NCBI GenBank assembly: GCA_964371665.1
Contig: CAYJNP010000001.1
Location: forward strand, 37,862-78,729
Direction: 5' to 3'
Source of the DNA: an uncultured Eubacteriales bacterium
GTDB taxonomy: Bacteria > Bacillota > Clostridia > Oscillospirales > Acutalibacteraceae
DNA length: 40,868 nucleotides
In this document: piece after piece, positions 14,207 to 40,561 of the stretch
Numbering within the stretch: the first letter of the stretch is position 1
Layout of the letters: each line of letters opens with the position of its first letter
Notes under the pieces: generated by a model
The model's input: only the letters and a program-made list of their open reading frames with translations
Database searches by the model: none
What the model was told of the DNA's origin: nothing
Program-made: the position numbers and the translations under genes

Positions 14207-16197
14207 TTAAATATATTTGACATATAATTTTTTTGATCTCTATTAATACAATGTACTGCAAGAGATTCTAACATAATATTTCCAGAAGAAATATTGTTGA
14301 TTGCTGTTGATTCAATATCAATAAAAGGAATAATATAATCAGGTATTTTTTCTATTGTTTTTGGCGTAGCTAAAACATTAAATCCCATTTTCTTAAATCC
14401 TTTATTTTCATCTTCATCCGTATAAGATCTAAAAACAACATTCATAATAATTTCATATTTATCTGGATAATTTTCTTTTAACCATAACATTTCTGGACAA
14501 TCTTCTTTTGTTGAAACTAATTTCATCATATTAATACTATCTGGTAATATTATTTTATGTTCTGGTTCTAATTCATTCCATACCATAACACCACGAACCT
14601 GTGGTAAAGATAATAATCTACTTTGATCATAATTTTCAAAACCATCACATCTTTTAGGAATTAGATATGTTGAATTTCCAGCTTTTATATCATCGGATAC
14701 TTCTTTCTTTATTTCATAGAATTTATATAAAATATCCTTCACAGAAATATTTTTATTTTTTAGAATATCATAAAATAAAATATTTGAATATTTATCTCTG
14801 ATTTTTTCTGCAATAACTGATTTTCTAATAGAAATACCTTTCATATCCAAGCGTTTATCCATTTCATCATCATCATTACAATCAATAATTTTTCCAAACT
14901 CTGCCCATAAATATGCAGCGTATGCTTTTTTAGCTTTCGTCATCATAGTTTGAGCCATTAAATATTCATTTTTCATTTCTATTATTTTTTTATATTCATC
15001 TTCTATTCCTAAATTTGTTGTAAGTGTCCAATAAATTCTAGCCAATGCTTCTGTACAAAAATCTATATAAATATTACAAGATGATAATTCATTTTTTTCT
15101 GTTTCTTTTAAATCATATTCTTTTAATAAAGTTTGAATATGATTTCCTAAATATAAGAAATTTGAATCAGTATCACAAATTAAAACTGAGTTTCTTGTTT
15201 CTTGTAATGCTCTTCTATATCTATCATCTAATATATAATTATAGAAAGTAAAATCAATTACAATGTTAGTAAAATCATCGTCTCTTGTATGACCGTTAAT
15301 TTTCTTTCCATCTTCTCCGATAGTTCCATCTATTTCATTATATCTTTTAATTTTAGAGTTCATTATTTCTCTAATTTTCTTACCTGATAAGAATAAAATT
15401 AAATTGTTTTTATAGAATAATTCTGTTAATTCTCTTTCATCGTGGGTTAATAATAGATTTCCTAATACGTCTCTTTCGATTTCGAAATCGCATTTATTAT
15501 ATAAATAATCAACGACTTCTTCTCTATTAATAGGTCTATCAACATAATCGAAAATATCTTTTTCATGTTTTTCTCTTTTTACATTCATAATAAATTGTAA
15601 AACATCATCTAATTTTTTATAACGACAATTATTTCCTAAGAAGTCCTCCATTGCTATAATTGATGTTGATATGATGTCTTGTCCTGTAAATGTTACAGAG
15701 TTTTGTATTAACGAATTAAAGAATATTGATACATCTAAACCTAATGTTCCATAAAATGCATTCGCTGCAACTTTAAAACCTAATTGTAGTACTTTATATC
15801 TATTATAATCTAGAGAACCTTTTTCCGAAGCTTGCATTTTATTTTTATTAATTCCACGCATTTTACCTAAGAATTCTAAAACTTGAATTATTAAATTTTC
15901 ATCATCGTGTTTTTCAAATAAACAAGCATACCCAGACATTATATAATCACTATTTAAAAATAGATTTATAAATTCTTCAACATTCATAACTTGATTAGTG
16001 TTTTTAACGTTGTTCATAAATCTACCTTTTGGTAAATAACGTTTTTTATATATCTTCTTTAAATAATCTAAAAGTTCTGCGTCTGATAATACATCTTTTG
16101 TATATTTTAATCTAATTTTATCTCTTAAATCTTTGAATAAAAGATACATGAAACTTAATCTTTCTTCTTTGTTTCTATTTCTAATATCTAATCGCAT
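14200..16197 (-). CDS. family-B DNA polymerase, C-terminal part (palm motifs B and C plus thumb)
   Basis: Motif B KVAANAFYGTLG (K...N..YG), motif C VLICDTDSNFLY (DTDS), and KKAYA (the KKRYA-type motif). GYACLFEKHDDENLIIQVLEFLGKMRGINKNKM aligns with T4 gp43 NGWMYDKHQEGIIPKEIAKVFFQRKDWKKKM. No exonuclease domain and no DxxSLYPS motif A are present in this ORF. Confidence 0.85.
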   Translation of the reverse strand: MRLDIRNRNKEERLSFMYLLFKDLRDKIRLKYTKDVLSDAELLDYLKKIYKKRYLPKGRFMNNVKNTNQVMNVEEFINLFLNSDYIMSGYACLFEKHDDENLIIQVLEFLGKMRGINKNKMQASEKGSLDYNRYKVLQLGFKVAANAFYGTLGLDVSIFFNSLIQNSVTFTGQDIISTSIIAMEDFLGNNCRYKKLDDVLQFIMNVKREKHEKDIFDYVDRPINREEVVDYLYNKCDFEIERDVLGNLLLTHDERELTELFYKNNLILFLSGKKIREIMNSKIKRYNEIDGTIGEDGKKINGHTRDDDFTNIVIDFTFYNYILDDRYRRALQETRNSVLICDTDSNFLYLGNHIQTLLKEYDLKETEKNELSSCNIYIDFCTEALARIYWTLTTNLGIEDEYKKIIEMKNEYLMAQTMMTKAKKAYAAYLWAEFGKIIDCNDDDEMDKRLDMKGISIRKSVIAEKIRDKYSNILFYDILKNKNISVKDILYKFYEIKKEVSDDIKAGNSTYLIPKRCDGFENYDQSRLLSLPQVRGVMVWNELEPEHKIILPDSINMMKLVSTKEDCPEMLWLKENYPDKYEIIMNVVFRSYTDEDENKGFKKMGFNVLATPKTIEKIPDYIIPFIDIESTAINNISSGNIMLESLAVHCINRDQKNYMSNIFKG

Positions 16198-18095: not shown

Positions 18096-18995
18096 TTATT
18101 TTCTTTTTTTCAATAAACTTGAATATTCTTTTTTATCATTTTGTAAAGATTCATTTAAAATATTATTTCTAACATTTTTTAAAAGATAATCTTCTAATTT
18201 TACTGTTTTTACTACGTTCCCGTTTTGTAATTTTACAGTACCGAAACTATTTGAATAAGTTTCCATTAATAATTTATCAGAATCATCATAGAAATATAAT
18301 TTACTAAAATGAACTAATTCACCTGAACCATTATCAATTAAATTTTCATAAATTAAACCTGAATTTTCTAAATTTTCTGTTTCTAATAAACCTTCATTTA
18401 AATTTAAAGATTCTGAAACAAAAGACTCATTTAAACAAGCTGATTCGTTAACACTTAAGTTTCCAATTTCTCTCATATAAGCTTTATCATGACTTGGATT
18501 CATAACCCAATCCCAACCAACAATTCTTAATCCTGGTTTTACAACAGTTCCTCCACCAAATCCTGGAGCAACATCACCTTGAGCTCTTAAACTAAATCCG
18601 ACTTGAACGCCTTGTTCTATTAATCCAGCCATACCTTTACCAACATCATTGTTTGCTGTTTCAAGATCACCAACTAATAAATCGCCTTCCCACCAAAGTT
18701 TTCTAATAATATGAGAGAATTTTAATGGATTAAGTTGACTTTGAACAGCCATATCTTTATTAGTAGGGTGTCCTGCTTCTCCACCAAAGTTCAATGTAGC
18801 CATACCTTTAGTAACAGTGAAATCTTTCATACCTTGTTCAAGGACGTTTTTAGGATAAGTTCTTCTATTTCTATTTTCTCTATTAGCCTCTTGAATTACA
18901 GCAGTAAATCTTATAGTTCCTAATGGAGTTTTTTTAAAATTTCTAATTTCAGCTACATGAGCTGACTCTAGAATTAAATATTTTCCTGTATTCAT
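18096..18995 (-). CDS. prohead core protease (T4 gp21 family)
   Basis: VIQEANRENRNRRTYPKNVLEQGMKDF aligns with T4 gp21 QAEVVNRNKRLYPKRILEKAVKDY. GGEAGHPT aligns with GELNHPP (catalytic His). KLWWEGDLLVGDLE aligns with DMWWKGNDVYGRARV. VGFSLRAQG aligns with PGVSSRGLG (catalytic Ser). I use the ATG at 18995 (MNTGKYL); the track's GTG at 19001 lies inside the leader spacer. Confidence 0.88.
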   Translation of the reverse strand: MNTGKYLILESAHVAEIRNFKKTPLGTIRFTAVIQEANRENRNRRTYPKNVLEQGMKDFTVTKGMATLNFGGEAGHPTNKDMAVQSQLNPLKFSHIIRKLWWEGDLLVGDLETANNDVGKGMAGLIEQGVQVGFSLRAQGDVAPGFGGGTVVKPGLRIVGWDWVMNPSHDKAYMREIGNLSVNESACLNESFVSESLNLNEGLLETENLENSGLIYENLIDNGSGELVHFSKLYFYDDSDKLLMETYSNSFGTVKLQNGNVVKTVKLEDYLLKNVRNNILNESLQNDKKEYSSLLKKRK

Positions 18996-19055
18996 GTACA
19001 CTATGCTTTACATTTCAAACGGCTAAGTCCTACCTATGACGTAAAGCGTCTCCTT
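18993..19055 (-). promoter_or_regulatory. structured leader with split ribosome-binding site (protease gene)
   Basis: The minus strand reads AAGGAGAC (19055..19048), GCTTTAC (19047..19041), a 29-nt loop, GTAAAGC (19011..19005), 9 nt (ATAGTGTAC), then ATG (18995). Confidence 0.55.
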
Positions 19056-19237: not shown

Positions 19238-19252
19238 GAACAATAGATTATA
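19238..19252 (+). promoter_or_regulatory. phage promoter-like motif GAACAATAGATTATA
   Basis: A copy of the 15-nt motif, 75 nt upstream of the ATG at 19327. Confidence 0.55.
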
Positions 19253-19985: not shown

Positions 19986-20076
19986 AAGGAGAGACTTTAC
20001 ATATAGTTGGTTAGTTTACCATGGGAATAACAATTAGTTATCTATAAATATAAAAAGTAAAGTATATAAAATTATG
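19986..20076 (+). promoter_or_regulatory. structured leader with split ribosome-binding site (capsid gene)
   Basis: AAGGAGAG (19986-19993), ACTTTAC (19994-20000), 56 nt with further imperfect pairing, GTAAAGT (20057-20063), 10 nt (ATATAAAATT), then ATG (20074). Confidence 0.6.
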
Positions 20077-21894
20077 AACTTTAAAACAAAATATGATAGC
20101 ATTAATGAAATATTTTTAACTACAGACAGATTCTTACAAGAAAGTACAGGATATGGATTAGTTGGTGAAGATGCTACAATTAAAAGACTTTTCACAAATG
20201 AAGAAACGAGAGAATCAATCATTACTTCAATGGTGGAAGGTGTAAGTGCTGACGAAGAAGTACAATTAAGACAATTATTAGAAAACACTGCTAGAAGAAC
20301 TATCCAAGAGTCTGCTGGTGGAATCGCTGGTTTAGCTTCATTAAATATGCCAGTAATTAGAAAATTATGGTACAAAACTAGAGCTAAAGATGCTTTAAAA
20401 ACTGTTGTTGCAAATAGTCCAACTATGGCTGTTGCTTATACAAAACCATATTTATTCAGATATGTTGGTGGAGTAAAAGAAACTAAAGATTTACCTTATG
20501 GTGCTATGTATGCTAACGCTGCTTTAAATGCTGCTAATGGTTTAGATTTATATAGTGGTGATGGTTTAGATTTCCAATCAGTTACATCAATTAAACCTTT
20601 AACTGATGCTGCTGGTTTAAACGGAACAATGGTAACAATCGATTACTGTGAAGGTAGCGATATTGACGAAATCGACAGAGATTACTTTGTAGATAAAGTT
20701 GAAGTTTATGCTGCTGCTGTTAAAGTTGTTGATGGTAAAGTTGTAAATGCTGATGATACAGATGCTGTATTAGAAGAAAGCTATTACGTAGGTTTAGAAA
20801 AACCAATCGCTGATACAATTTATGGTACATTAATCGTTCCTTCAACTGCTACTGTTGATGCTGGTAAAGTTGCTGGTCAAATCGTTGTAAATGTTGCTAT
20901 GACTAAAGGTACTGCAGATATTTCTGTATTAAAAGGTGCTTTTGGTGCTTTAAAAGATGCTGTAAGTGGATCAGTTGTTGTTTATACAAGAGCTCATTTA
21001 TCAGCTGAAAAAAATGTTGCTTCATGGTCAGTTGCTACTGAAATTGCAAAACAAGAAATTACAATTGGAACTGGTACACATATCAATGCTCCAATGACTA
21101 TTGAATCTATTCAAGATTCAGAAGCATTATACAAAATTGACTTAACAGCAGAAATTACTGATGTTATGACTCAAGTATTTGCTCAAAGATTAGATGAAGA
21201 ATTAATTGACTTCATGATTAGAAAATTCGTAAACAGACCAACTAACGTTGAATTTAGAAATAACCCTGCTTATACTGGTGCTGCTGCTCATACATATACT
21301 TTTGATGTAGCTACAATGACTGGTTATACTGGTGGACCAAAAGCTTGGCGTGAAGAATTAAAACCTGTTATCGATGACGCTGCTATCGCTATTATGGAAG
21401 AAAGTAGATTCCAAGAAGGTACATTTGTATTAATTTGTCATCCAAAAACTGCTCAATTATTAAAAAATCCAGAATGGCAATATAAAGGTGGAAACGGTGG
21501 AAACGTTGATGGTACTTCTGTATCTTTCGATACTGCTGTATTTACTTCAGATTCATTCATTTATAAATTAATTAGTTCATTCAATTACCCTAAAGGTATG
21601 ATCGGATTATCATTTATCCCAGCTGGTGAAAAACAATTATCACAAGTTTATTACCCATATGCATTCACTATGAGTACAAGTGCTGGTTATAGAGATCCAA
21701 ATCAAGAAAACACTCCATCATTAGTTATGACTAAACGTCATGCAAAATGGGAATTCACTCCTACTTCTGCATTAATCGTTATCAAAAACTTAGATGGTAC
21801 TTCAAGATTCCATGCTGGTAACTTATGGTCTAACCAATTCTTAAGTAATGCTGATGTTCAAAACGGAGATTTAATTTATACACCAAAACCTTAA
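20074..21894 (+). CDS. probable major capsid protein
   Basis: Noticeably higher GC and strong codon bias (GCT/GGT/GTT/ACT) indicate very high expression. It lies divergent from the protease/scaffold operon, is preceded by an acidic protein gene, and is followed by a strong terminator. The 606-aa size fits large-phage capsid proteins. I recall no diagnostic motif, so the call is contextual. Confidence 0.65.
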   Translation: MNFKTKYDSINEIFLTTDRFLQESTGYGLVGEDATIKRLFTNEETRESIITSMVEGVSADEEVQLRQLLENTARRTIQESAGGIAGLASLNMPVIRKLWYKTRAKDALKTVVANSPTMAVAYTKPYLFRYVGGVKETKDLPYGAMYANAALNAANGLDLYSGDGLDFQSVTSIKPLTDAAGLNGTMVTIDYCEGSDIDEIDRDYFVDKVEVYAAAVKVVDGKVVNADDTDAVLEESYYVGLEKPIADTIYGTLIVPSTATVDAGKVAGQIVVNVAMTKGTADISVLKGAFGALKDAVSGSVVVYTRAHLSAEKNVASWSVATEIAKQEITIGTGTHINAPMTIESIQDSEALYKIDLTAEITDVMTQVFAQRLDEELIDFMIRKFVNRPTNVEFRNNPAYTGAAAHTYTFDVATMTGYTGGPKAWREELKPVIDDAAIAIMEESRFQEGTFVLICHPKTAQLLKNPEWQYKGGNGGNVDGTSVSFDTAVFTSDSFIYKLISSFNYPKGMIGLSFIPAGEKQLSQVYYPYAFTMSTSAGYRDPNQENTPSLVMTKRHAKWEFTPTSALIVIKNLDGTSRFHAGNLWSNQFLSNADVQNGDLIYTPKP

Positions 21895-22186: not shown

Positions 22187-22891
22187 TTATGCACCTTTTA
22201 TTTTTCTTGAATAAGTTAGTATTGAATTTTGAGCAAATTTTTCTATTAATGCTTCTCTTTCTGCTTTTGCATTTTCAACTTGATCTAAAAATAAACTTAT
22301 ATTACCATAAGGTGATTCTATATTTTCAAATCTTTTTCTAATAGGAAATAATGTTACTAAAAAATCTAATAAACATAATTGTAGAAAATGCTCTCTCAAT
22401 CCAGTATCAATTGTACTCAAATGTTCTGGATGAACAGCCATTATCATTGCTAAAGCATAACTTGATGACCATAATTTTGGAAAAATTTCGACTTTATTTG
22501 GTGGAATAAATACTGGTGTTATTCTTGTTTGTGTATATGATTGAAAATCAGCATATAATTGATTATTGACTGGATCTGTTGAATTCATCAATGCTAAATT
22601 ATTATAACTATTTAGATCACTTAAATAAACTTCAGAAACACCGACGATTCTTAATCCATCAACATTAGGTATTGTATATACATTTTTTCCACGAATTATT
22701 TCATCTTTTTCTCTTAAACCTACTCTAAATTTAAATGGGAAATATTTACTAAATGTTACTAGAGATTCTTGGAATACTGTTTTCATCATTTCTTCATCAG
22801 ATATCTCAGCTTCAATATCATAAACAACATCACCAATATTTCTTTTTATATAACGGATTACTTCCGTAGGATTTAAACTAAACATAGCCAT
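22187..22891 (-). CDS. hypothetical protein (probably virion-associated, by context)
   Basis: I use the ATG at 22891 (MAMFSLNPTE). The track start at 22900 is a TTG. The GAACAAT motif lies 25 nt upstream. Confidence 0.65.
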   Translation of the reverse strand: MAMFSLNPTEVIRYIKRNIGDVVYDIEAEISDEEMMKTVFQESLVTFSKYFPFKFRVGLREKDEIIRGKNVYTIPNVDGLRIVGVSEVYLSDLNSYNNLALMNSTDPVNNQLYADFQSYTQTRITPVFIPPNKVEIFPKLWSSSYALAMIMAVHPEHLSTIDTGLREHFLQLCLLDFLVTLFPIRKRFENIESPYGNISLFLDQVENAKAEREALIEKFAQNSILTYSRKIKGA

Positions 22892-22915
22892 ATAAATCAA
22901 CTCTTTTCTTTATAT

Positions 22916-22930
22916 TATAATATATTGTTC
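22916..22930 (-). promoter_or_regulatory. phage promoter-like motif GAACAATATATTATA
   Basis: Back-to-back with 22940..22954. The two GAACAA cores form an inverted repeat separated by 9 bp. Confidence 0.55.
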
Positions 22931-22939: not shown

Positions 22940-22954
22940 GAACAATTTATTATA
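22940..22954 (+). promoter_or_regulatory. phage promoter-like motif GAACAATTTATTATA
   Basis: A copy of the 15-nt motif, 30 nt upstream of the ATG at 22985. Confidence 0.55.
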
Positions 22955-22984
22955 TAATAACAAATAACGAAAGGACGGATGCAT

Positions 22985-23731
22985 ATGCAAAACGTAGATA
23001 TAGAATTATTAATAAAATTATTTAAATCTCAAAAGATTTCAGAATATACTTTTGGTTCAGAATTAGAAAATATTATAGGTGGACTAACTAGAACTAATGT
23101 TGAATTTATTGATGGAACTTTTGGTTCTTCTGGAAATGATTATCTTGTTTCTTCATTACCTATATTAATTCCAAATGGATATAAATTTAAATTTATCGTA
23201 GATAGAACTTTATTTAAAGGTTCACTTTTTTCAGATACAGATATTTCTAGAATTATTGAAGATGTGTCAAAAGGACAACTTCAAATCTTAAATGTATTAA
23301 ATAAAAAATTCAATAAAAAGAAAAATATTGAAATTGGTATGAGAGAATTAATAAAAATTTATTTAGAGCTTTATTTAGCTAATATTAAATTAATAAATCC
23401 ATCAATTTTATCTAAAATTCAAAAAGAAAATATTCTAAACATTAATGATTTAGAAAAATTTATATTCGAATACGATGATAATAACTTATCTTTAGAAGAA
23501 GTATTAGAATTTATTTCTGTTAAACATTTATTACCTGAGCCTTATATAATGGAAGCTAAAAAGCAATTTGGAAGTCAAGTTGAAAGTATTTATGGAAAAG
23601 GTGCTAATCACGATGAACCGGATTACTTTGATGTAAAAAATATGAAAAAAGAACCTTTCGATAACGATAAAGATGATCCTGTTATAACTAGAGAAATTCC
23701 TCATGACTATAAACCTCCTTATAGTTATTAA
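22985..23731 (+). CDS. hypothetical protein
   Basis: The track start at 22979 is part of the conserved block GAAAGGACGGATG, which also precedes 19327. With that SD, the ATG at 22985 (MQNVDIELL) has 6-nt spacing while 22979 has none. Confidence 0.65.
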   Translation: MQNVDIELLIKLFKSQKISEYTFGSELENIIGGLTRTNVEFIDGTFGSSGNDYLVSSLPILIPNGYKFKFIVDRTLFKGSLFSDTDISRIIEDVSKGQLQILNVLNKKFNKKKNIEIGMRELIKIYLELYLANIKLINPSILSKIQKENILNINDLEKFIFEYDDNNLSLEEVLEFISVKHLLPEPYIMEAKKQFGSQVESIYGKGANHDEPDYFDVKNMKKEPFDNDKDDPVITREIPHDYKPPYSY

Positions 23732-23736
23732 AAAAA

Positions 23737-23767
23737 GAAAATAGAACTTATTGTTCTATTTCTTTTA
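23737..23767. terminator. bidirectional terminator between convergent genes
   Basis: 9-bp stem aaatagaac (23739-23747) / gttctattt (23753-23761) with loop ttatt. A-run upstream and T-rich tract downstream. Overlaps the last codons of the ATPase gene. Confidence 0.65.
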
Positions 23768-26270
23768 TTTTTTCTATACTTTTTGAAGTCCAATTTACCA
23801 TTTTGCTTAATAAATAATATAATGGTGTTCCAAATATAAAGATAGCAACTAATAATAAATAGTTACCTGTATTTAGATATTTTAAACTGTCTGAAGCTGT
23901 TATAAAATCACCTTTAAATAAATTAACTAAAGAAGAATGATAATCGAAAATCATATCTTTTAAACTATCCAATCCATTTTTAGAGGAATAAAATGTAACT
24001 AGTACAATATCTGGATTGACTAATAAAATACCTATTCCTAAAATCATAGATATTATGACGACTATTTTTTTATAATTATTTAATGGTTTACATAAAATTA
24101 TTAATAATATATAACCGGAAACAGCCATAGATAATAATGCCATAGAATCTCTTACATATATATTTCCAGGATTAAAAGCATGTATCGAGAATATAATTGC
24201 AACTGGAAAGAATATTAATAAAGCAGAACTTATTGAATTCAATATTACTCCTTTGATAAATCTTCCGGATATTGGATGGGATGATTTTTGCAAAGATAAA
24301 AATAGAGAACTAAATCCTATAATTGCTGTTTCAAATATTGTAAAATTTTCAGTACTAAATGGATATTTTCCACCTAACATAATTATTGAATAAATTGACA
24401 TTAATATTACAAAAAATGTTTTCATTAAAAATAAAGTTGATGTTAATTGAATATTATTTATAACTCTTCTTCCTTCATTTACAACTTTAGGAAGATTTGA
24501 AAAATCAGAATCCATTAACACGACTTGAGATACTGCTTTGCTAGCCTCTGATCCAGAAGCCATTGCAATAGAACAATTTGCTGTTTTTAATGCTAAAATA
24601 TCATTTACACCATCACCAGTCATTGCTACATTTTTCTTATTGTCTTGTAAAGATTTTATTAAAATTGCTTTTTGTTCCGGTGAAACACGACCGAATACTG
24701 TAAATCTATTGGCTGCGTCTCTTGTTTCTTCTGCTGTTAAATGTTCTAAAGAAATGCATTTATCTGCATTATCTACACCGACTTGTTCGGCTATTCTTGA
24801 AACTGTAAGCGGATTATCACCAGAAATAATTTTAATATCTACATCGTTATCTTTGAACCATTTAATAGTATCTGCAGCCGTTTCTCTAATATTATCTTTG
24901 ATAACAAATAGAGCATATGGTATTAATTTATCATTAATTGATTTTGATTTATGATTTATTTTTTCATCATTTGCTGAAGTTGCTAAAACAACAACTCTAT
25001 AACCTTTGGAAGCATATGAATTCGCTAATTCTAAATGTTTAGGATAATGTTCTTTTTTTATTATAAATTCTGGAGCACCTAATATGAATGTTCCTCCAAC
25101 TTCAAAAGTTAATGCAGAATATTTTCTATCACTAGAGAAATCCAATTGATCTATAACTTTCATATCATTTCTTAATTTAAATCTTTCAGTTAATGCAACA
25201 TTTGTTTGATTATTTCCATTAATATAATTTAAATAATTCCCCATAATTTTTTCAACTAAATTTATATTAGCTTCTAAAATAACTGTATCAATAACTGTCA
25301 TTGTTCCATCGGTAATAGTTCCTGTTTTATCTAAACATAAAGTATCTATTCTTGCTAGAGACTCTATTGAATATAAATCTTTTACCATTGTATTGTTATT
25401 TGATAATCTAACAACACCTACAGTTAACGCTATTGTTGTTAGTAAAAACATACCAGTTGGAATTATTTGTGTCATTAAAGCACCTTGTGCTAATAAAGCT
25501 TCGTCCATATCAGTATCGCTTCCTAACATAGCCAGAAAACTGAATAATAATAGGGGAACTATTATAAAAGATAATCCTTTAATAATATTTGTTAAAGATG
25601 ATAATAAAACAGACTTTTTCTCTTTTATAGATTTTGTTTTATTTTGTAATTTATTGACAAAACAATCATTACCTATTTTATTTACAAAAGCATAAGCTTT
25701 TCCAGATACAACAAATGAACCACTTAACAATTCACTATCTTTTTCTTTTTTAATTAAATCTGATTCTCCAGTTAATAAAGACTCATTAACTTCTATTTGT
25801 CCAGATAATACTATACAATCGGCTGGTATTTGTTCACCAATATTCAATTCTATAACATCATCTAATACTAACATTTCTGATTTTATTTTATATTTATTAT
25901 CATTTCTTATAACTGTTGTACTTGGTGCGTTTATTAATTTTAAATTATCCAATGTTAATTTTGTTCTTATTTCTTGAATTATTGCAGTAGCAGTATTTAT
26001 TAAAACAGGTATTAAAAATAAATACATACTAAAAGGTGCACCGGCTATAATAAATAATAATATAGCGATCATAAAAAGAGAGTTGAAAAATGTAAATATA
26101 TTTTTATAAAAAATGTTCCATATTGTATTAGAAACTTCTACATTAGCTTTATTTATTAAACCAGCTTTTTCTCTTTCTATAACTTGTTCAACAGTTAAAC
26201 CTTTTTTAGAAACTTCATATCTTTCGATTTGAATAACTTCTAAAATTTTTTCGTTTAATAGTTTTTTCAT
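23748..26270 (-). CDS. P-type cation-transporting ATPase (E1-E2, HAD-IC type); substrate unknown
   Basis: Actuator motif LTGESD, phosphorylation motif CLDKTGTITDG, LGAPEF (KGAPE-like), hinge MTGDGVNDILALKTANCSIAM, and multiple hydrophobic helices at both ends. No N-terminal metal-binding domain or CPC motif. The M4 helix reads IIPTGMF instead of the PEGL of Ca-type pumps. Confidence 0.92.
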   Translation of the reverse strand: MKKLLNEKILEVIQIERYEVSKKGLTVEQVIEREKAGLINKANVEVSNTIWNIFYKNIFTFFNSLFMIAILLFIIAGAPFSMYLFLIPVLINTATAIIQEIRTKLTLDNLKLINAPSTTVIRNDNKYKIKSEMLVLDDVIELNIGEQIPADCIVLSGQIEVNESLLTGESDLIKKEKDSELLSGSFVVSGKAYAFVNKIGNDCFVNKLQNKTKSIKEKKSVLLSSLTNIIKGLSFIIVPLLLFSFLAMLGSDTDMDEALLAQGALMTQIIPTGMFLLTTIALTVGVVRLSNNNTMVKDLYSIESLARIDTLCLDKTGTITDGTMTVIDTVILEANINLVEKIMGNYLNYINGNNQTNVALTERFKLRNDMKVIDQLDFSSDRKYSALTFEVGGTFILGAPEFIIKKEHYPKHLELANSYASKGYRVVVLATSANDEKINHKSKSINDKLIPYALFVIKDNIRETAADTIKWFKDNDVDIKIISGDNPLTVSRIAEQVGVDNADKCISLEHLTAEETRDAANRFTVFGRVSPEQKAILIKSLQDNKKNVAMTGDGVNDILALKTANCSIAMASGSEASKAVSQVVLMDSDFSNLPKVVNEGRRVINNIQLTSTLFLMKTFFVILMSIYSIIMLGGKYPFSTENFTIFETAIIGFSSLFLSLQKSSHPISGRFIKGVILNSISSALLIFFPVAIIFSIHAFNPGNIYVRDSMALLSMAVSGYILLIILCKPLNNYKKIVVIISMILGIGILLVNPDIVLVTFYSSKNGLDSLKDMIFDYHSSLVNLFKGDFITASDSLKYLNTGNYLLLVAIFIFGTPLYYLLSKMVNWTSKSIEKIKEIEQ

Positions 26271-26321
26271 TTCTTTTCCTTTCTTATTAATAAAGAACGG
26301 AAATCATAAAGATTCCCATTC

Positions 26322-27062
26322 TTAGAATTTTATTAATTTCTCCATAGGAGATGTTTTTTCTTCTCGATTTTCTCGATTATGTAAAATTGCAGCAGCAATT
26401 TGTTGTTTTGAGTCTTCACCCATTATACCAGTAAATGTACTTGTTAATTCTGGTAATTTATTCAATTTAACTTGTTTATAATTATACATTGCTTTAGGAT
26501 TATTATTTATATAAAATCTAAATGCTTCAACTATTTTATTTTTATTTCTAAATAATTCTGAAATTAATAATTCATAAGTTGTTGATGAAACACCTAATCC
26601 TATATAACCACTTGCTTCCATAGCATTTATTAATAGAGGCAGAATAGAATCGTAAGAAATAATTTTAGGCATTTTTCCTTCTTCTATTAATTTAGAAATG
26701 AAGAAAACCAAATCATCAGGATCTTCCATATGGTTTAAATCATAACAAAAAGCATCTCCGGGTTTTAATTTGAAAACGATATAATCATCTGCTTCTATAC
26801 CTGGTTTCAATCTACCAGACCATTTATATTTTTCAGAAAAGCTAAACATCATTTTAATCGGATAACTTAATTTATAAACTTTATCTTTAAATTTAAATAA
26901 GAATAAACCTATTGTTTCTATATTTTCACCTATTTGTCTAGCCATAGCACTTTTAGTACCACTCATATAACTTTCTGGAATATATATTTCTAATAATAAA
27001 TCTTTAAAAGTTAATTGTGTTCTTAGGTCTATTTTTTCTTCTTTTAGAAAACTATACTTCAT
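26322..27062 (-). CDS. hypothetical protein
   Basis: ORF-track frame. Of the clustered starts (TTG 27074, ATG 27065, ATG 27062), the ATG at 27062 has the best spacing to GGTGA. Confidence 0.6.
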   Translation of the reverse strand: MKYSFLKEEKIDLRTQLTFKDLLLEIYIPESYMSGTKSAMARQIGENIETIGLFLFKFKDKVYKLSYPIKMMFSFSEKYKWSGRLKPGIEADDYIVFKLKPGDAFCYDLNHMEDPDDLVFFISKLIEEGKMPKIISYDSILPLLINAMEASGYIGLGVSSTTYELLISELFRNKNKIVEAFRFYINNNPKAMYNYKQVKLNKLPELTSTFTGIMGEDSKQQIAAAILHNRENREEKTSPMEKLIKF

Positions 27063-27534
27063 CATTATCACCAACTAATTCTTTTGTTATTTTTTCTTTG
27101 AACATACCAGAAGAAGATAAACTTCCTATTCCAGCTTTCAAATCTTTTCTAAATCTGAATACAAATTTTTTTGCATAAATTTCATCTCTTTTTATTATAA
27201 TTACAACTGGAACACCGTAATCTAATCTAGTCACTTCTATATGATATAAAATTCCTATATTGTCTTCTATTCCATTATATTTATCCATTAAATTATCTAA
27301 ATAAGAACGAATTTCTTGCTCAGTCATTACATCACCAATCATTTGTCTTAATATATGTAAATCTTGTCTTAATTCTATTCTTTCTTTACAAAAATTATTA
27401 ATTTCTCCAAATAATAGATGTTTTATCTTAGGATAGTAAATTGAATTTTCAATATTAGGGTTTAAAGAGTCACCAACATTTATCATTATCTCATTTAATT
27501 GTGAAAATGTTTTAGGATCTTTTTTGATGATCAT
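27052..27534 (-). CDS. hypothetical protein
   Basis: 160-codon ORF. SD GGGGTGATTTC precedes the ATG. Confidence 0.65.
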   Translation of the reverse strand: MIIKKDPKTFSQLNEIMINVGDSLNPNIENSIYYPKIKHLLFGEINNFCKERIELRQDLHILRQMIGDVMTEQEIRSYLDNLMDKYNGIEDNIGILYHIEVTRLDYGVPVVIIIKRDEIYAKKFVFRFRKDLKAGIGSLSSSGMFKEKITKELVGDNDEV

Positions 27535-27538
27535 GAAA

Positions 27539-28120
27539 TCACCCCATCAAACAATTTGATAATTCTTTAATTAATAATAAATTTTTTACTGATTCATTAA
27601 CAACTTCTAAAGATAAATCTTCAATTTTTATATGATTTAATTGATCATATAAATTATCACTATAAATTTCTTCTTTAGTTTTTATTTTAGATAAATTTTT
27701 ATGTAAAATATCTGCATTTTTTATTTCATATTTATCGCAATATTCTTCCATATTATTCCCTAAAAAATTTTTCATATTAGTAAATTCATCTTTAGTTTCT
27801 TCAAATTCTAATAATAAATTTCCAATATAAGCAACTTTCATTGCTTCTTTTAAAGATAGTTTTAAACCATTTCTAGAAGATAACATTATATTTCTTAAAT
27901 TTTCTGCTGTTTTTAAAGATAAAATATCTTTAACTTCAGAGTTATTTCTAAATGCAAAATAATTTGCAATTGCATCTTCAGTTGATTCATTTATTAAATT
28001 AGAACCTTCTACTAATACTTTATTCAAAGTATTTTCAACTTCTTCTTTAATTTCTTTTTTATATTTATTCATTGTTGTGACTTGTTTCACAAAATTTTCT
28101 TTTATAACATTTTTAATCAT
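27539..28120 (-). CDS. hypothetical protein
   Basis: ORF-track frame. The ATG at 28120 (MIKNVIKENF) overlaps the upstream stop (ATGATTAA). The track start at 28132 is a GTG. Confidence 0.6.
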   Translation of the reverse strand: MIKNVIKENFVKQVTTMNKYKKEIKEEVENTLNKVLVEGSNLINESTEDAIANYFAFRNNSEVKDILSLKTAENLRNIMLSSRNGLKLSLKEAMKVAYIGNLLLEFEETKDEFTNMKNFLGNNMEEYCDKYEIKNADILHKNLSKIKTKEEIYSDNLYDQLNHIKIEDLSLEVVNESVKNLLLIKELSNCLMG

Positions 28121-28928
28121 TATATCGACCACTTTCTATTTTTTTATTATATAATGTATTGTTCTCTATAATTTCTTCAATTTTAGCTTTAAGTAATCTA
28201 TTTTTTTCTAATTCTAAATCATGATCAGTCATTAATGAAATAAGATGTAAAAATACTGCATTTACCCTTGATATATTTTTATTTACAATAATATCAAAAT
28301 ATAACATTCCAATAAATTTTTTAAATCCTTTTATTTTATGACATAAATTAGTAGTTAATTGTTGTCTTATTTTTCTTAAATCTTTATGAACTTGTTCTAC
28401 TGTGAAAATTAATTTGCCAGCTACAGCTTTTGTCATAAATATTTCAAAATTTACAAAGTCTAACGATAATACAGTTTCTATTAAACTATTTTCACCATGT
28501 TGCATTCTTAAATATTCAATAGTTTCTTCAATAGGGACATATCCTTTAATATTTAAATCACTTGTTCCTGTTATATCAAATAATTGATCTGGATTTTGTA
28601 ATTGTAGTAATTTAAAATCATTTTCATCGTCATTTAATAAACATTTAACTAATCTTTCAACATTTGCAATTGTCCATCCAGGTAAAAAACTTCTGAATCT
28701 TATATATAAAATTGCTTCTAAATTTTCTTTATCATCTATTGTTGTTTTAACTTGCTCTATAATTTCTTTTAGTACTGAAAATTCAGCATTAGAAAATTTA
28801 TAAAATAATTCTTTTTGTTCTAGTTTTTCTTCTTGAAAAATTCTTGTTTCATTTTCATTTAAATTAACTTTACCTAAAATATCAGTTAAAGCATTTTCTT
28901 TCTCATAGTTTTTCTTATTAATATTCAT
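28113..28928 (-). CDS. hypothetical protein
   Basis: 271-codon ORF whose start overlaps the upstream gene's end by 11 nt. No recognisable motifs. Confidence 0.65.
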   Translation of the reverse strand: MNINKKNYEKENALTDILGKVNLNENETRIFQEEKLEQKELFYKFSNAEFSVLKEIIEQVKTTIDDKENLEAILYIRFRSFLPGWTIANVERLVKCLLNDDENDFKLLQLQNPDQLFDITGTSDLNIKGYVPIEETIEYLRMQHGENSLIETVLSLDFVNFEIFMTKAVAGKLIFTVEQVHKDLRKIRQQLTTNLCHKIKGFKKFIGMLYFDIIVNKNISRVNAVFLHLISLMTDHDLELEKNRLLKAKIEEIIENNTLYNKKIESGRYND

Positions 28929-29782: not shown

Positions 29783-29797
29783 TATAATAAATTGTTC
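29783..29797 (-). promoter_or_regulatory. phage promoter-like motif GAACAATTTATTATA
   Basis: A copy of the 15-nt motif just downstream of the terminase stop/hairpin. Confidence 0.55.
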
Positions 29798-29811: not shown

Positions 29812-29846
29812 TAATAGAAAAAATAAAAGGCTTATAAAAACCTTTT
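29812..29846 (-). terminator. weak terminator-like hairpin after the terminase gene
   Basis: The minus strand reads AAAAGG-(10 nt)-CCTTTT followed by ATTTTTTCTATT. The stem is only 6 bp with a large loop. Confidence 0.35.
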
Positions 29847-31854
29847 ATGAATTCCACTTTTTAAATGTATTTTGTAATCTATCTTCCGTTGGTGTAAAAT
29901 CTTCTTCTTTTCCATAATAAGCCCCACTATCAAAATCTCTTGATGCACTCGTTACTATACCATCGTTATTTTTTGTTCCACCGTTTAAAAATCTAGATTC
30001 TATATGATTTATAGAAACTGTTGCTCTTAAAGTTTTAGCTCTAACTTCTTCTATATTTTCAATATTAAATACTCTATGATTTAAAATTCCATATTGTTTA
30101 AAGAAATCACCATCAGAAACAGCATATCTAAATACTAGATAAGACATAACGGAGTCATCATGACATCCAGGAGATGCTTGAGGTTTCCCTTTTATTTCTA
30201 CTAATGTTCCTAATTCATTTATTATTTTTTTAGAAACGAAAACATCCGGTTCGTCTCTAACAATTGCAGTTAGCATACTGAACATCAAAGGTCTACTATA
30301 TCTATCGGTGTGAACACCATAAGTATATTCAAATCTTTTCTTTTCTATTTTTTTACTATACTCTTTTGTTACAGATGCTTCTTTTACTGATTTTTTCTTA
30401 TATATTCTTGGTTCTAATTGAGGATTTTTAATTAATCTATCTAAAATTGCTTTACCGTAACTATTTCTTTCGACCACTAATAATGAATTTATGAAATAAC
30501 TAGTCATCAGTTTATCTATTAATGAACCAAATAAGTTTATATCTATTTTTGAACTTGCTATATCGCCAACTATTCTAAAATCTGAAGGATGTATTATATT
30601 AATTACTGAGCTATCTTGATTTGTACCTCCGGCAACGTCACAAGATAGAATGTATCTTTGTTTTAAATCGGGTAATTCATAGAAATCAATAAAATAAGGA
30701 ATTCTATTTATTACTTTACCTTTAACTTCTATATCAACATCTACTCTTAGAACGAAAACAGAATCTTTAGCGTAACTATTTACAATTTCCATATCTTCAG
30801 TAGAAAATAGACCGTTATCTATTGAATTCGTCCAAACTAAATCTAATTCCCTTTTTTTCTTTAATTCGCTTGACATTTGCGAACACATTTCATCGTACCA
30901 ATCTTGTGTTCTACCTATTTCTTGCCAACTATATTGAATATGAACAAATGGTTTCTTTCCATTTTTTTTCATAAAACGTTTTATTTCTGATTCTGTCATA
31001 TCATAAAATTCATATCTAAATGGTGTACATTCTGAAATAAATTTATGAGCCCACTTACCAGTTTCTGTATCTATATTATTTGGTGTTGTTGTAAAATGCA
31101 TTCCATAAGGCACGCCGTTTCGTTTAGCATTTTCTGCTGCTGTTCTCCATGCTGGAACACAGGCATCATAAATAATATCTACTTTATTCATGAAGGCTAA
31201 CTCGTCTTTATAAATTATAGCTGAAGTCAAACCCCTACCTAACTTATCGGCTTGAGCTGCTGAAGTTGCAGATGATTTAATTAATAATTGATTTTTTAAT
31301 CTACTTATAAATTTTTCATTTACATTATCTTTATCATGTTTATGTTTAATAATTGTTTGTAAAAATCTAGGTAATAATTCCTTTATTGCTTTAAAACGTC
31401 TACCATTTTCAATAGCATCTGGATATTGTTTATTAAGATAAATTGCTTGACATCCTTTTGTTGCAAATAACATTATCCATGTATGTTCAATAACACAACC
31501 TATTGTCTTACCTTGCTGACGTGGTAATAAAGAAATAAAATTTAAATTTTTTGAAACTGCGAATGATTGAGCTAAATTTCCTAAATTTAATTTATAAGGA
31601 ATACCGTCCGACCCAGTATCTGGAATTAATACTACTTCTCTTATATAATACCATTTATTCCTACAAATTTCATTATATATTCTTATTTTTTGTTCTGCTG
31701 TTAAATTATCACTTCTAGGATCAACTCCGACTAAAGATTTATCGTATAATTTTAGCATAAATTTATTATTTTTTACACCTTTTTTCTTTAATTGGTTTGA
31801 TACGAATAAAAATGAAAGATTTTTTGTATTTATATCATAAATAAAATCAGCCAT
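29845..31854 (-). CDS. terL: terminase large subunit
   Basis: Walker A-like LPRQQGKT (compare T4 gp17 SRQLGKT), Walker B IIYKDELAF, coupling motif FTTTPN, nuclease acidic residues in SCDVAGG and CHDDSVMS. SD AGAAGTGATATA. Confidence 0.9.
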   Translation of the reverse strand: MADFIYDINTKNLSFLFVSNQLKKKGVKNNKFMLKLYDKSLVGVDPRSDNLTAEQKIRIYNEICRNKWYYIREVVLIPDTGSDGIPYKLNLGNLAQSFAVSKNLNFISLLPRQQGKTIGCVIEHTWIMLFATKGCQAIYLNKQYPDAIENGRRFKAIKELLPRFLQTIIKHKHDKDNVNEKFISRLKNQLLIKSSATSAAQADKLGRGLTSAIIYKDELAFMNKVDIIYDACVPAWRTAAENAKRNGVPYGMHFTTTPNNIDTETGKWAHKFISECTPFRYEFYDMTESEIKRFMKKNGKKPFVHIQYSWQEIGRTQDWYDEMCSQMSSELKKKRELDLVWTNSIDNGLFSTEDMEIVNSYAKDSVFVLRVDVDIEVKGKVINRIPYFIDFYELPDLKQRYILSCDVAGGTNQDSSVINIIHPSDFRIVGDIASSKIDINLFGSLIDKLMTSYFINSLLVVERNSYGKAILDRLIKNPQLEPRIYKKKSVKEASVTKEYSKKIEKKRFEYTYGVHTDRYSRPLMFSMLTAIVRDEPDVFVSKKIINELGTLVEIKGKPQASPGCHDDSVMSYLVFRYAVSDGDFFKQYGILNHRVFNIENIEEVRAKTLRATVSINHIESRFLNGGTKNNDGIVTSASRDFDSGAYYGKEEDFTPTEDRLQNTFKKWNS

Positions 31855-31872: not shown

Positions 31873-31887
31873 TATAATATATTGTTC
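31873..31887 (-). promoter_or_regulatory. phage promoter-like motif GAACAATATATTATA (terminase)
   Basis: A copy of the 15-nt motif, 19 nt upstream of the terminase ATG. Confidence 0.55.
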
Positions 31888-31998: not shown

Positions 31999-32102
31999 AA
32001 GGAGAGTCTTTACGATAGATGGATTGCTTTTATCCATATCTGTGACATAAAATGTTTCTATAATATAATGAAAATTATATTAAGTAAAGAATATAAAATA
32101 TG
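31999..32102 (+). promoter_or_regulatory. structured leader with split ribosome-binding site (sheath gene)
   Basis: AAGGAGAG (31999-32006), TCTTTAC (32007-32013), 70 nt containing the inner hairpin GATGGAT/ATCCAT, GTAAAGA (32084-32090), 9 nt (ATATAAAAT), then ATG (32100). Confidence 0.6.
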
Positions 32103-33803
32103 GCAAATACTATAATAAATTATCCTAGAGTTTCTGTAACTTATAATGCTAGTTTAACTCAATTACCTACAGCTGCTGAAAATAATGCTACAATTTTGTT
32201 TGCACCTTTTATATCTAATAAAGGACCTGCAAATAAACCAACATATATATCTTCTTATAGTGACTTTGTTTCTTTGTACGGAACTTTGGATTATAATAAA
32301 AATGGACAACAAGTTTTGAATATAGGAAATTGGTTAAATTCTTTTGGTCAAATTTTAGCATATAGAATTGTTGATTTCGATTCAATAAAACTTACAGGTG
32401 GGATTAATGATATTGATTTAACTAATGCTTTATCTGATACAGATTTAAAAAGTTTTTTAAATTTTTATTCATTAGTTCTTGAAAATGGTTCGACGGTATA
32501 TTTTGTTAATGGTGTTGAATTAGATAATGATTTAACTTCATTTGTTGATACTTATACATTAAGTGTCGAATCAGATGGCTCATTAAAAATAGGAGAAGAA
32601 AATTTAACTAACAACAGTCGTAATGTTTCTATAAATGATCCTTCTTTATATGCATTATATGGAACTGATATTTCTGAAACAGCACTTGCTATTAAATCGA
32701 TTAAATTTATATATCGTTCTAAAAATATTGGTTCAGATTATCAAAATTTTAAATTAAGTTTTGAAGGTTCAAGTATCGAAAAAACATTTAATATTGTTTT
32801 AAGTAACAATAATAAAGTTATTCAAACAATAAGAAATAGAACTTTAAGTAATTATAAAAGTGCATTAATAAAAGATGAAGATCCTTTTTCATATATAGAT
32901 ATGATTTATATAAATGGAGGATTTGATATAACTTCAACTATAGGATATTCAAATTATATTCAATTAATTCAAAATAAAATAGATGGTGATAATATTTCTT
33001 CTGCTTTTGATGCAATAGCTGATCCATTGGTTTATCCTTGTGATGTTGTTTTAGATGCTGGTTTCTCTAGTGATGTAAAACAAGCTATTGTTAATAAAAT
33101 TGAAAATGTTCGTTATGATGTATTTTCGTTTTTAGATTATTTTGAAAATAAAAATAATAAAATGATCCAATTAACGAGTGCACCTACGGTAATTAAAGGT
33201 GATAATTTTGCAATTTATCAACAATATGGGACAACTGAAGACATTTATTCTACAGTTTCTCAAGGTGAAATTAAAGTTACACCTACATATTTCTTAGCAA
33301 ATCTTATTCCTTTTAATGATAGACAATATGGATACGGTAAAACTCCTGTTGGTTTAAGATACGGTGTATTAAATGATGTTATTTCTATAAATCAAATTCC
33401 TAATAGTGATGAAAAAGAAGAATGGTTCCAAGCCGGAATTAATTATATTGAAAAAGATTCTCGTTCAACACAATTCTTTACTCAAAGAACTATGTTTGAA
33501 GTTCAAGATGGTTTTGTGTCAGCATTACAATTTATTAACAACTCTCGTATTGCAAAAAGAATAGGTAGAGATGTTACAAATATTGCTAGATGGGAAATCG
33601 GTGAAGTAAACGATAATACAACAGTGACAAATCTAAGAGATAAAATAAATAGATATTTGGATACATGGGTTCAATTAAGAGTATTATCTTCTAAAGAAGT
33701 AATAGTTGAAATAGATCCATTTGATAATGTAATTTTAAATGTTACATTAAATATATTATTTAACGGTACAATTGAATACATTCCAATTGTAATCAATTTA
33801 TAA
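32100..33803 (+). CDS. tail sheath protein
   Basis: The N-terminus has the usual sheath layout (YPRVSVTYNAS...ATILFAPFISNKGPANKPTYISSYSDFVSLYG). The C-terminal block is GINYIEKDSRSTQFFTQRTM. It is followed by a tube-like gene. Confidence 0.75.
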   Translation: MANTIINYPRVSVTYNASLTQLPTAAENNATILFAPFISNKGPANKPTYISSYSDFVSLYGTLDYNKNGQQVLNIGNWLNSFGQILAYRIVDFDSIKLTGGINDIDLTNALSDTDLKSFLNFYSLVLENGSTVYFVNGVELDNDLTSFVDTYTLSVESDGSLKIGEENLTNNSRNVSINDPSLYALYGTDISETALAIKSIKFIYRSKNIGSDYQNFKLSFEGSSIEKTFNIVLSNNNKVIQTIRNRTLSNYKSALIKDEDPFSYIDMIYINGGFDITSTIGYSNYIQLIQNKIDGDNISSAFDAIADPLVYPCDVVLDAGFSSDVKQAIVNKIENVRYDVFSFLDYFENKNNKMIQLTSAPTVIKGDNFAIYQQYGTTEDIYSTVSQGEIKVTPTYFLANLIPFNDRQYGYGKTPVGLRYGVLNDVISINQIPNSDEKEEWFQAGINYIEKDSRSTQFFTQRTMFEVQDGFVSALQFINNSRIAKRIGRDVTNIARWEIGEVNDNTTVTNLRDKINRYLDTWVQLRVLSSKEVIVEIDPFDNVILNVTLNILFNGTIEYIPIVINL

Positions 33804-40560: not shown

Positions 40561-40561
40561 A

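Follow-up and report, generated by a model that had tools for sequence, protein, structure and literature searches.

A stretch of 40,868 nucleotides (hereafter the window) from contig CAYJNP010000001.1 of GenBank assembly GCA_964371665.1, assigned to an uncultured Eubacteriales bacterium, carries on its minus strand, at positions 23748-26270, a gene which, judging from its sequence, is a catalytically complete P-type ATPase of a phage. It can be said with high confidence that the product is a functional pump and that it belongs to the phage. Sequence comparison indicates that the gene is inherited within a phage-only lineage of AR9-like jumbo phages of low-GC Firmicutes. The explanation that, taken as a whole, we consider slightly better than an even bet is that of a late-expressed phage pump, which would carry out the efflux of H+ or a monovalent cation and keep the membrane of the infected cell energised.

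The pump gene and its motifs are located in the window as follows.

23748..26270, minus strand: coding sequence of the P-type ATPase, 840 amino acids (aa), ATG start, 10 transmembrane (TM) helices plus A, P and N domains (open reading frame, Pfam, NCBIfam and structural model)
25761..25772, minus strand: TGES dephosphorylation motif of the A domain, aa 167-170, invariant in all 121 relatives
25446..25466, minus strand: M4 ion-site helix IIPTGMF, aa 269-275, with T272 where PEGL pumps have their Ca2+-binding Glu
25311..25331, minus strand: DKTGTIT phosphorylation motif, aa 314-320, with D314
25068..25082, minus strand: LGAPE of the N domain, aa 397-401, lacking the Lys of KGAPE
24588..24623, minus strand: MTGDGVNDILAL, hinge and Mg2+-binding motif, aa 550-561
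24417..24422, minus strand: K617-T618 of M5, the Lys being invariant in every relative examined
24318..24332, minus strand: E647...I651 of M6, a single core carboxylate, followed 4 residues later by an Ile in place of the universal M6 Asp
26277..26283, minus strand: ribosome-binding site GAAAGGA, 6 nt 5' of the pump ATG, read from the sequence

The positions of the motifs were checked by translating these window coordinates. The original prediction, made from the letters of this DNA, had described an 840-aa open reading frame (ORF) with all P-type hallmark motifs and transmembrane bundles, and this description was borne out in full by Pfam, the generic P-type model TIGR01494 and the structural model. 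TGES, the helix-breaking proline P271 of M4 and the hinge GDGVND (aa 552-557) are invariant across the relatives of the pump, and the catalytic motifs are complete and invariant in all seven phage orthologues first identified. In Pfam, the E1-E2_ATPase domain was matched with an E-value of 7.9e-40 (136.7 bits at a cut-off of 28.1) and the HAD domain Hydrolase with 3.5e-21; TIGR01494 was passed with 232.8 bits (cut-off 62.3). It had also been claimed that the protein has no heavy-metal-binding domain or CPC motif, and indeed a motif check of the protein found no CxxC, CPC/CPx or His-rich metal motif. The P1B heavy-metal model TIGR01525 remained below its cut-off (231.9 vs 346.25), and the protein does not qualify as a P1B pump.

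Structure prediction with AlphaFold2 from an alignment of 63 sequences gave a confident model with a predicted local distance difference test score (pLDDT) of 85.3 and a predicted template-modelling score (pTM) of 0.78. It consists of the helix bundles M1-M4 and M5-M10 with the cytoplasmic domains in between and has the 10 TM helices and A, P and N domains that define the type-II P-type fold; extra short helices are modelled in the M9-M10 segment (residues 753-797). In Foldseek searches, the model matched LMCA1, SERCA, Na+/K+- and H+/K+-ATPases, Pma1 and MgtA nearly equally (E~1e-37), with template-modelling scores of 0.6-0.7 to SERCA, LMCA1, Pma1 and MgtA, and the sequence identity to solved P-type pumps was 18-22%.

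The phage nature of the surrounding DNA is evident from the following genes of the window.

4497-5930: helicase
5991-7862: RNA polymerase (RNAP) beta-like subunit
14200-16197: DNA polymerase
18096-19001: head maturation protease
20074-21894: major head protein (MCP)
22187-22900: virion structural protein
26322-27074: virion structural protein
29845-31854: large terminase
32100-33803: tail sheath
33822-34655: tube-like virion protein
34695-37058: T4-like portal

The MCP is 24-32% identical to the MCPs of AR9, PBS1, Listeria phage LPJP1 and Staphylococcus jumbo phages. A related MCP, an RNAP beta-like gene and the late-promoter motif AACA-N6-T-A/G were all found in the window, and on these sequence features it is assigned to an AR9-like jumbo phage. 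The position of the pump between virion genes, as originally described, was verified, with the MCP, virion proteins, terminase, sheath, tube and portal lying in its flanks. The composition of the pump gene likewise matches the surrounding phage DNA, as had been proposed: its GC content of 0.255 and GC content at third codon positions (GC3) of 0.112 are indistinguishable from those of the rest of the window, and its relative synonymous codon usage (RSCU) correlates with that of the other window genes at r=0.98, joint highest of all genes.

Orthologues of the pump were found on eight further phage contigs (L001, L003, L007, L005, L140, L002, L006 and L163) from independent samples. The contigs that share the pump in the same virion-gene neighbourhood originate from SRR29381464, ERZ23499987/ERZ27276637, SRR22923221, SRR28204440 and Ga0247609. 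The closest relative, P0002, is 52% identical and lies on a 12.8-kb contig with the gene order of the window; the order common to both is tube, sheath, terminase, five small ORFs, pump and two ORFs. The pumps P0003/P0004 (L003, L004, L007) and P0005 (L005) occur in the same neighbourhood with a local rearrangement. The pump is situated directly 3' of the capsid gene and on the same strand in L003 and L007, between homologues of the window genes 22979-23731 and 22187-22900 in L005, and next to homologues of the 160-aa and 250-aa genes of the window in L140. It is also present in more distant jumbo phages, namely L002 (a 332-kb IMG/VR contig, 41% identity), L006 (P0010) and L163. The identity of the pumps among phages, 38-52%, is on a par with that of the MCP (42%), terminase (44-58%) and tube protein (51%). 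Purifying selection is indicated by a ratio of nonsynonymous to synonymous substitution rates (dN/dS) of 0.19 in the closest pair; in pairs that are more saturated, the ratio is 0.28-0.39. A chimeric join with host DNA, named in the original prediction as an outcome that would overturn it, is refuted, because the orthologues share the virion-gene neighbourhood in independent assemblies and the codon usage is phage-like.

In phylogenetic trees, the seven phage pumps first identified were monophyletic in 100 of 100 replicates against 78 GTDB homologues. After the addition of 62 metagenome sequences, the clade of the window pump (the core five and P0010) remained phage-only with 98-99% neighbour-joining (NJ) bootstrap, and a deeper sister group was found to mix the phage pumps L002, L140 and L163 with L158 and L168, which have a cellular context, and with L162, the context of which is ambiguous. 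Together they form a 12-tip clade with 100% support. Strict monophyly could not be upheld for the phage pumps as a whole, since L158 and L168 nest with the divergent L002, L140 and L163. The pump of L158 (1579-4125) stands beside htpG in DNA of 53% GC, and that of L168 (7965-10658) beside peptidases, an EamA transporter and an HD-domain gene. This nesting suggests, as far as the sequences can be read, either phage-to-cell transfer or repeated capture. From the phage-only window clade and the mixed sister group, an old capture, a long residence in phages and some exchange between phages and cells may be concluded.

The cellular homologues are at most ~46-48% identical to the window pump and belong to gut and rumen Clostridia (Christensenellales and others), Bacilli and Acholeplasmataceae/Mycoplasmatota, the last as metagenome-assembled genomes (MAGs). 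No genes of the phage lineage of the window were found in the flanks of the cellular pumps in 80 GTDB loci. The cellular sister group comprises MAGs labelled Bacilli, Bacillales and Clostridium sp. CAG:288, and no donor taxon is named here because this Bacilli-type group is weakly supported (37/100).

The affiliation of the pump within the P-type ATPases follows from its M4 helix. The original prediction pointed out that M4 reads IIPTGMF rather than PEGL; this sequence is present, but it is not peculiar to this gene, as MIP[A/S/T]GM(F)LL is found in M4 of all 120 closest relatives. IPxGM in M4 is, by sequence, the signature of a large, functionally uncharacterised subfamily of Firmicutes rather than a phage quirk. 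The accompanying remark that the transported ion cannot be read from an M4 without PEGL was sound. None of the subfamily models of NCBIfam scored above its cut-off for the pump, the best sub-threshold match being the P3A proton pump model TIGR01647 (236.1 bits vs a cut-off of 615.5). The phage pump, cellular members with PxGM and two paralogues from Enterococcus faecalis show the same pattern, passing the generic P-type model only, and thus the whole lineage has no curated model.

The first E. faecalis paralogue (807 aa, IPEGL in M4) is 38-39% identical to the pump and bears all three hallmarks of the P6 pumps given below, and the second (778 aa, LPKGL in M4) is 35-37% identical. Both are located in E. 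faecalis DNA inside records named 'Enterococcus phage Efs 1-1-1' (L008:2965-5388 and L009:2980-5316). The LPKGL paralogue has Lys at the position of the cation-binding Glu and both Asp and Glu in M6, and on its sequence appears to represent a third, undescribed site configuration.

In the CtpE paper, E. faecalis EF1268 and 136 Firmicutes entries were included in 'family 23', many Clostridia were listed, and VPEGL was given for TM4. This family was renamed P6, with PEGL in TM4, replacement of the TM6 Asp by Ile and absence of the N-domain Lys (Palmgren 2023, PMC10654040); the last feature is reported for both P6 and P1B pumps. The pump lacks the first hallmark, having IIPTGMF where the subfamily consensus is MIP[S/A]GMFLL. 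It possesses the second, as I651 aligns with the M6 Asp of LMCA1, and Ile occupies this position in 68 of 78 cellular and 5 of 7 phage relatives. The third is present too, since LGAPE is found in the window pump and in all phage and outgroup sequences. With two hallmarks of three, the pump is placed in a distinct 'PxGM' branch related to P6 and not in P6 itself. The relationship to CtpE/P6 (TCDB family 23, 3.A.3.23) is supported at the level of sequence, the IPEGL-type paralogue of E. faecalis having been taken as a proxy for mycobacterial CtpE. The pump resembles CtpE/P6 in its length class of ~780-870 aa, 10 TM helices, lack of an N-terminal metal-binding domain, LGAPE, TM6 Ile and invariant M5 Lys. 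It differs from them in three places: their PEGL of M4 reads P-[S/A/T]-G-M, the carboxylate is located in M6 (E647) and not in M4, and M5 has K-T where they have K-N.

The ion site was assigned by a family profile alignment to LMCA1, in which T272 (Ser or Ala in relatives) corresponds to the M4 Glu, K617-T618 to the M5 Gly-Asn, E647 to the M6 Asn and I651 to the M6 Asp. K617 does not vary among the sequences examined, and position 647 is Glu or Asp in 78 of 78 GTDB cellular homologues. Three site types were recognised.

CtpE type (5/5): Glu in M4, K-N in M5, Ser in M6
Window subfamily: S/A/T in M4, K-T in M5, Glu/Asp in M6
L140/L163/L162/L168 group: A/C in M4, K-D in M5, Asn in M6

These correlated shifts of the carboxylate between M4, M5 and M6 support the view that the three positions line one site, in which one carboxylate normally stands beside a fixed Lys. 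The window pump keeps the full cellular-type site T272/K617/T618/E647/I651, and E647 is likewise present in P0002 and P0010.

The M5 Asn and M6 Asp of LMCA1 are presumably the equivalents of the Asn792 and Asp824 positions of the gastric H+/K+-ATPase. In that enzyme, the TM5 Lys791 directly precedes Asn792 and forms a salt bridge with the TM6 Glu820, 4 residues before Asp824; through this pair, the site accepts only a single cation, the pKa of the carboxylate is lowered and the release of H+ is driven (PMC8481561). The combination of an M5 Lys and an M6 Glu recurs in the window pump with the same spacing (K617-T618, E647...I651). However, the gastric enzyme also has Glu343, Glu795, Asp824 and a beta subunit, and the identity is 18-20%. 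A likeness to the P3A H+-ATPases AHA2 and Pma1 may be seen in the minimal site of one protonatable carboxylate and a basic M5 residue (the pair Asp684/Arg655 in the plant H+-ATPase), in TIGR01647 being the best sub-threshold match for the pump and all its relatives, and in the presence of Pma1 among the top structural matches. Unlike P3A pumps, the window pump has Ile at the place of their M6 Asp carboxylate, lacks regulatory termini and falls short of the TIGR01647 cut-off. LMCA1, a Listeria Ca2+-ATPase and the closest solved structure by sequence (profile E-value 6e-93), shares the architecture and catalytic motifs, but it has an M4 Glu and an M6 Asp, has no M5 Lys and is ~21-22% identical. 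A site in which a lone carboxylate stands beside a fixed positive charge, and which has no multi-carboxylate Ca2+ cage, favours H+ or a monovalent cation, and by this analogy such a substrate may be tentatively proposed.

The elements relevant to the expression of the pump are the following.

26293..26323, minus strand: 13-bp hairpin with a U-rich tract behind it, separating the pump from the late gene 5' of it (-16 kcal/mol, z -3.6)
23733..23766, both strands: bidirectional AT-rich terminator hairpin, where the pump gene and gene 22979-23731 converge (-12.1/-11.0 kcal/mol, z -3.5)
26322..28132, minus strand: three co-oriented genes of 197, 160 and 250 aa, which separate the pump from the nearest late promoter; the 250-aa product is a virion structural protein
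28152..28163, minus strand: AR9-type late-promoter motif AACAATACATTA, the nearest strong promoter motif 5' of the pump on its strand
5956-5967(-), 13085-13096(-), 14150-14161(-), 19239-19250(+), 22918-22929(-): example sites of AACAATNNATTA
22941-22952(+), 28152-28163(-), 29785-29796(-), 31875-31886(-): further example sites of AACAATNNATTA

The AR9 late-promoter consensus AACA-N6-T-A/G was defined experimentally and is recognised by the non-virion RNAP (PMC5312081). The motif AACAATNNATTA, which fits this consensus, occurs 16 times in the window at an expectation of 1.25 ± 1.19, a count reached in 0 of 100 shuffles, and is almost always located 15-35 nt 5' of gene starts on the same strand. 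Among the genes preceded by it are those of the terminase, the 197-aa and 278-aa proteins and both neighbours of the pump, and a variant, AACAATTAGTTA, is found 34 nt 5' of the start of the capsid gene. The loose form AACA-N6-TR showed no overall enrichment in the window (95 vs 84±9). The enrichment of AACAATNNATTA together with its match to AR9 implies a transcription programme of the AR9 type with a non-virion RNAP in the window phage. Late motifs stand before the pump at -34 in L001 (variant AACAATATAATA), -34 in L005, -17 in L002 and -32 in L006. The pump is therefore read as probably late-expressed on the basis of these motifs, which speak against an early role in host take-over.

That the gene is bracketed by a hairpin at about 26300 and by a bidirectional terminator had been noticed from the letters, and both structures do fold (z -3.6 and z -3.5, respectively); the stop codon of the pump lies in the loop of the second one. 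The first hairpin is probably a leaky terminator or attenuator. Equivalent hairpins are found 5' of the pump in L001, L003, L007 and L002, and the hairpin directly precedes the ribosome-binding site of the pump in the window, L003 and L007. In these three, a late operon ends in a terminator-like hairpin, and the pump gene starts ~20 nt beyond it: in the window, the operon begins with the motif at 28152-28163, continues with the 197-, 160- and 250-aa genes and ends with the hairpin, and in L003/L007 the preceding gene is that of the capsid. A reduced level of expression through read-through of the hairpin is inferred from this arrangement and would be sensible for a polytopic membrane protein encoded beside very highly expressed virion genes.

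The following course of events may be proposed. The non-virion RNA polymerase of the phage would transcribe the pump gene late, in the window at a low level by read-through of the hairpin that ends the 197/160/250-aa operon, and the host Sec/YidC machinery would insert the product into the cytoplasmic membrane of the host. Using host ATP and the E1/E2 cycle, the pump would move a small cation, exporting H+ or a monovalent ion. The benefit would consist in an energised membrane and a stable ion and pH balance of the cytoplasm during the long assembly phase of a jumbo phage, and the energised membrane could delay premature triggering of holin or the collapse caused by abortive infection. The broad original claim of an auxiliary gene acting on the ions of the host has gained in respect of ownership, integrity, conservation and, partly by inference, late-promoter context. 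The particular benefits put forward with it, namely countering the loss of ions, membrane depolarisation by abortive infection or superinfection, are neither supported nor excluded by the results.

Several observations weigh against the proposal of a late phage pump for H+ or monovalent ions, or limit it. No late-promoter motif is present directly 5' of the pump in the window, L003 and L007. A search of public sequencing data yielded no run indexed for the gene. E647 is replaced by Gln in P0003-5 (L003, L005, L007) and by Asn in L002 (L002:9974-12511) with no obvious replacement, and this loss of the M6 carboxylate in four phage orthologues means that transport may be altered in a part of the phage clade. 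The resemblance to the gastric H+/K+-ATPase is an analogy drawn from a sequence alignment, with no homology at the subfamily level. CtpE, the only characterised member of the wider lineage, is reported to import Ca2+. The cellular pumps have conserved neighbours (serS, cysS, mrnC, rlmB, a sigH-like gene and gyrA), and no riboswitch was found near them in 18 loci; such housekeeping surroundings give no clue to the substrate. Finally, the pump trees were exclusively NJ distance trees, rooted on the two E. faecalis paralogues.

As a separate observation, MAGs of the Bacilli/Mycoplasmatota type (L013, L029, L036, L095, L112, L157 and others) have the pump in a cluster of cysS, mrnC, rlmB and a sigH-like gene or next to serS or gyrA, which suggests a constitutive housekeeping use in those reduced genomes.

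Among the alternatives, a late-acting importer of Ca2+ or another divalent cation similar to CtpE survives best, yet we consider it unlikely. Such a pump would supply counter-ions for the packaging of a genome of ~250 kb or larger, contribute to virion stability or perturb the envelope before lysis. The nearest characterised lineage, CtpE, is a genetically defined Ca2+ uptake pump tied to cell-surface integrity, and ctpE of Streptococcus pneumoniae interacts genetically with the envelope factor CozEa, linking Ca2+ and the envelope. The pump shares with P6 the absence of the N-domain Lys and the replacement of the TM6 Asp by Ile, and late expression within the virion cluster would suit a need at the assembly stage. 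Nevertheless, the Glu of PEGL, on which the authors of the CtpE study based their proposal of Ca2+, is replaced by Thr, Ser or Ala, a divalent cation would be poorly held by a single carboxylate whose charge a Lys neutralises, and the identity to the PEGL-type paralogue is only 38-39%.

A bolder extension of the proton or monovalent-ion proposal may also be formulated, although it seems improbable to us. According to it, the whole phage-only clade would consist of late pumps acting through the Lys(M5)-Glu(M6) site, energising the membrane and thereby controlling the time of lysis or resisting depolarising defences, and the neutralisation of the carboxylate or its movement to M5 in several phages would suggest a re-engineered coupling or specificity.

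Somewhat less probable still is a repurposed scaffold, that is, an uncoupled ATPase, a regulated leak that conditions lysis or a membrane factor of superinfection exclusion. Conservation of the transport site is relaxed in the phages, where Gln and Asn occur at position 647, compared with Glu or Asp in all 78 cellular homologues; the substitutions M304S/T, K542Q and N663S, at positions conserved in at least 95% of the cellular homologues, run throughout the phage clade; and the extra short helices of residues 753-797 might be understood in the same way. On the other hand, the window pump retains the full cellular-type site and every catalytic motif, dN/dS is well below 1, and L140 and L163 appear to have moved the carboxylate to M5 (K-D) rather than lost it.

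There is little probability that the gene encodes a canonical P2A Ca2+ export pump which, as in Jug and other huge gut phages, would lower cytoplasmic Ca2+. The position of LMCA1 as the closest solved structure by sequence speaks for it, as does the precedent of phage Ca2+-ATPases, some of which are most similar to pumps of Bacillota. However, the Ca2+ models TIGR01116, TIGR01522 and TIGR01517 gave 190-201 bits against cut-offs of 507-798, the Pfam domains Cation_ATPase_N and Cation_ATPase_C were not matched at E<=0.01, the Ca2+-binding M4 Glu and M6 Asp are replaced by T272 and I651, and the identity of 18-22% is no better to Ca2+ pumps than to H+, Na+/K+ and Mg2+ pumps. With the Ca2+ residues, domains and model scores all failing, this alternative is contradicted on its defining features.

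The remaining alternative, a phage-host assembly join or a host gene that was captured recently and plays no part in the phage, has a negligible probability: P-type ATPases are overwhelmingly cellular and several 'phage' matches in GenBank and IMG/VR proved to be host DNA, but the recurrence of the gene in the same virion neighbourhood in independent samples, its divergence on a par with virion genes, purifying selection, fully ameliorated codon usage, phage-only clade and the lack of any cellular homologue above 46-48% identity lead to the rejection of both the chimera and the recent passenger.

The records Enterococcus phage Efs 1-1-1, Listeria phage LM 4-11-1 and Bacteriophage sp. MT835548, with matches of 37-39%, were discarded as carriers of the pump, being UNVERIFIED or host-like, and the genes matched in them are not phage genes. 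More generally, many multi-contig 'phage' records of the INPHARED set marked UNVERIFIED or UNVERIFIED_ORG (OR846587, OR846618, OR847062, OR848258, MT835548 and others) are host chromosomal DNA and therefore produce false 'phage' matches for cellular genes such as P-type ATPases. In IMG/VR, L002 was the only further genuine phage carrier. The candidate L090 (IMGVR_UViG_3300014771_000096) was rejected: its gene is of the PEGL type, lies at the end of the contig with genes for a repressor, an ImmA-like protein and a large serine recombinase next to it, and most likely belongs to host DNA past a prophage attachment site.

According to the original prediction, P-type ATPases lie outside the usual gene repertoire of phages, and this is only partly true. 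Calcium-translocating P-type ATPases, new to phages, were described in the study of Jug phages (preprint 2025, Sci Adv 2026, PMC12880540) and are encoded by Jug phages, 81 other huge gut phages and four smaller phages (PMC12880540). P-type pumps of phages thus have a precedent, but those pumps belong to a different, canonical Ca2+-pump family. Common to them and the window pump are the full length, the gut jumbo phage as carrier, an origin of host type and the proposed role of an auxiliary gene of ion homeostasis; the window pump lacks their Pfam domains and Ca2+ residues and belongs to another subfamily and to an AR9-like lineage of Firmicutes type.

In BFVD, full-length viral P-type ATPases were found only from giant eukaryotic viruses (Yasminevirus, Bodo saltans virus, Homavirus and Edafosvirus). 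They are likewise virus-encoded and full-length; unlike the window pump, they are named PMR1-type Ca2+ or Mg2+-type pumps, and they are 13-19% identical to it. P-type ATPases are also encoded by chloroviruses (PMC12880540). The family phrog_12316, annotated as 'ATPase', matches the pump at 9e-85, and thus some related proteins of phages or prophages have already been catalogued without comment.

Primary ion pumps of phages were first reported in 2025-26, and only as canonical Ca2+ exporters of Bacteroides-type jumbo phages. The window locus represents a second, unrelated P-type subfamily, which AR9-like jumbo phages of Firmicutes have captured and long kept. It probably forms part of the late programme of virion genes and belongs to a little-understood bacterial lineage related to CtpE/P6. 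In our opinion, the phage clade, a compact, diverged and naturally mutated set which includes variants devoid of the sole transport carboxylate, could help to explain this pump family. If H+ or a monovalent ion is indeed transported, this would be the first indication of phages directly energising the host membrane late in infection.

Some other features of these phage contigs deserve mention. The homologue of the terminase in L003 (9752-12165) appears to be split into a piece of 440-465 aa and a separate 284-aa ORF that continues to the contig end, while in the window, L001 and L005 the terminase is one ORF of 649-669 aa; an intron or intein, or a frameshift, may be the cause. At the left end of the window (265-1572, minus strand), there is a nicotinamide phosphoribosyltransferase-like gene (phrog_448, 1.7e-19), an auxiliary gene of NAD salvage. 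The largest unannotated protein of the window is encoded by a 1117-aa ORF at 8167-11520 (minus strand), near the RNAP beta-like gene (5991-7862), and has no match in PHROG or Pfam. The GC content falls to 0.165-0.188 over the last ~4 kb (37001-40868, with genes at 37058-40596 that have no family matches) against an average of 0.24, and the GC-richest part of the window is the region of the capsid gene (0.32-0.33).

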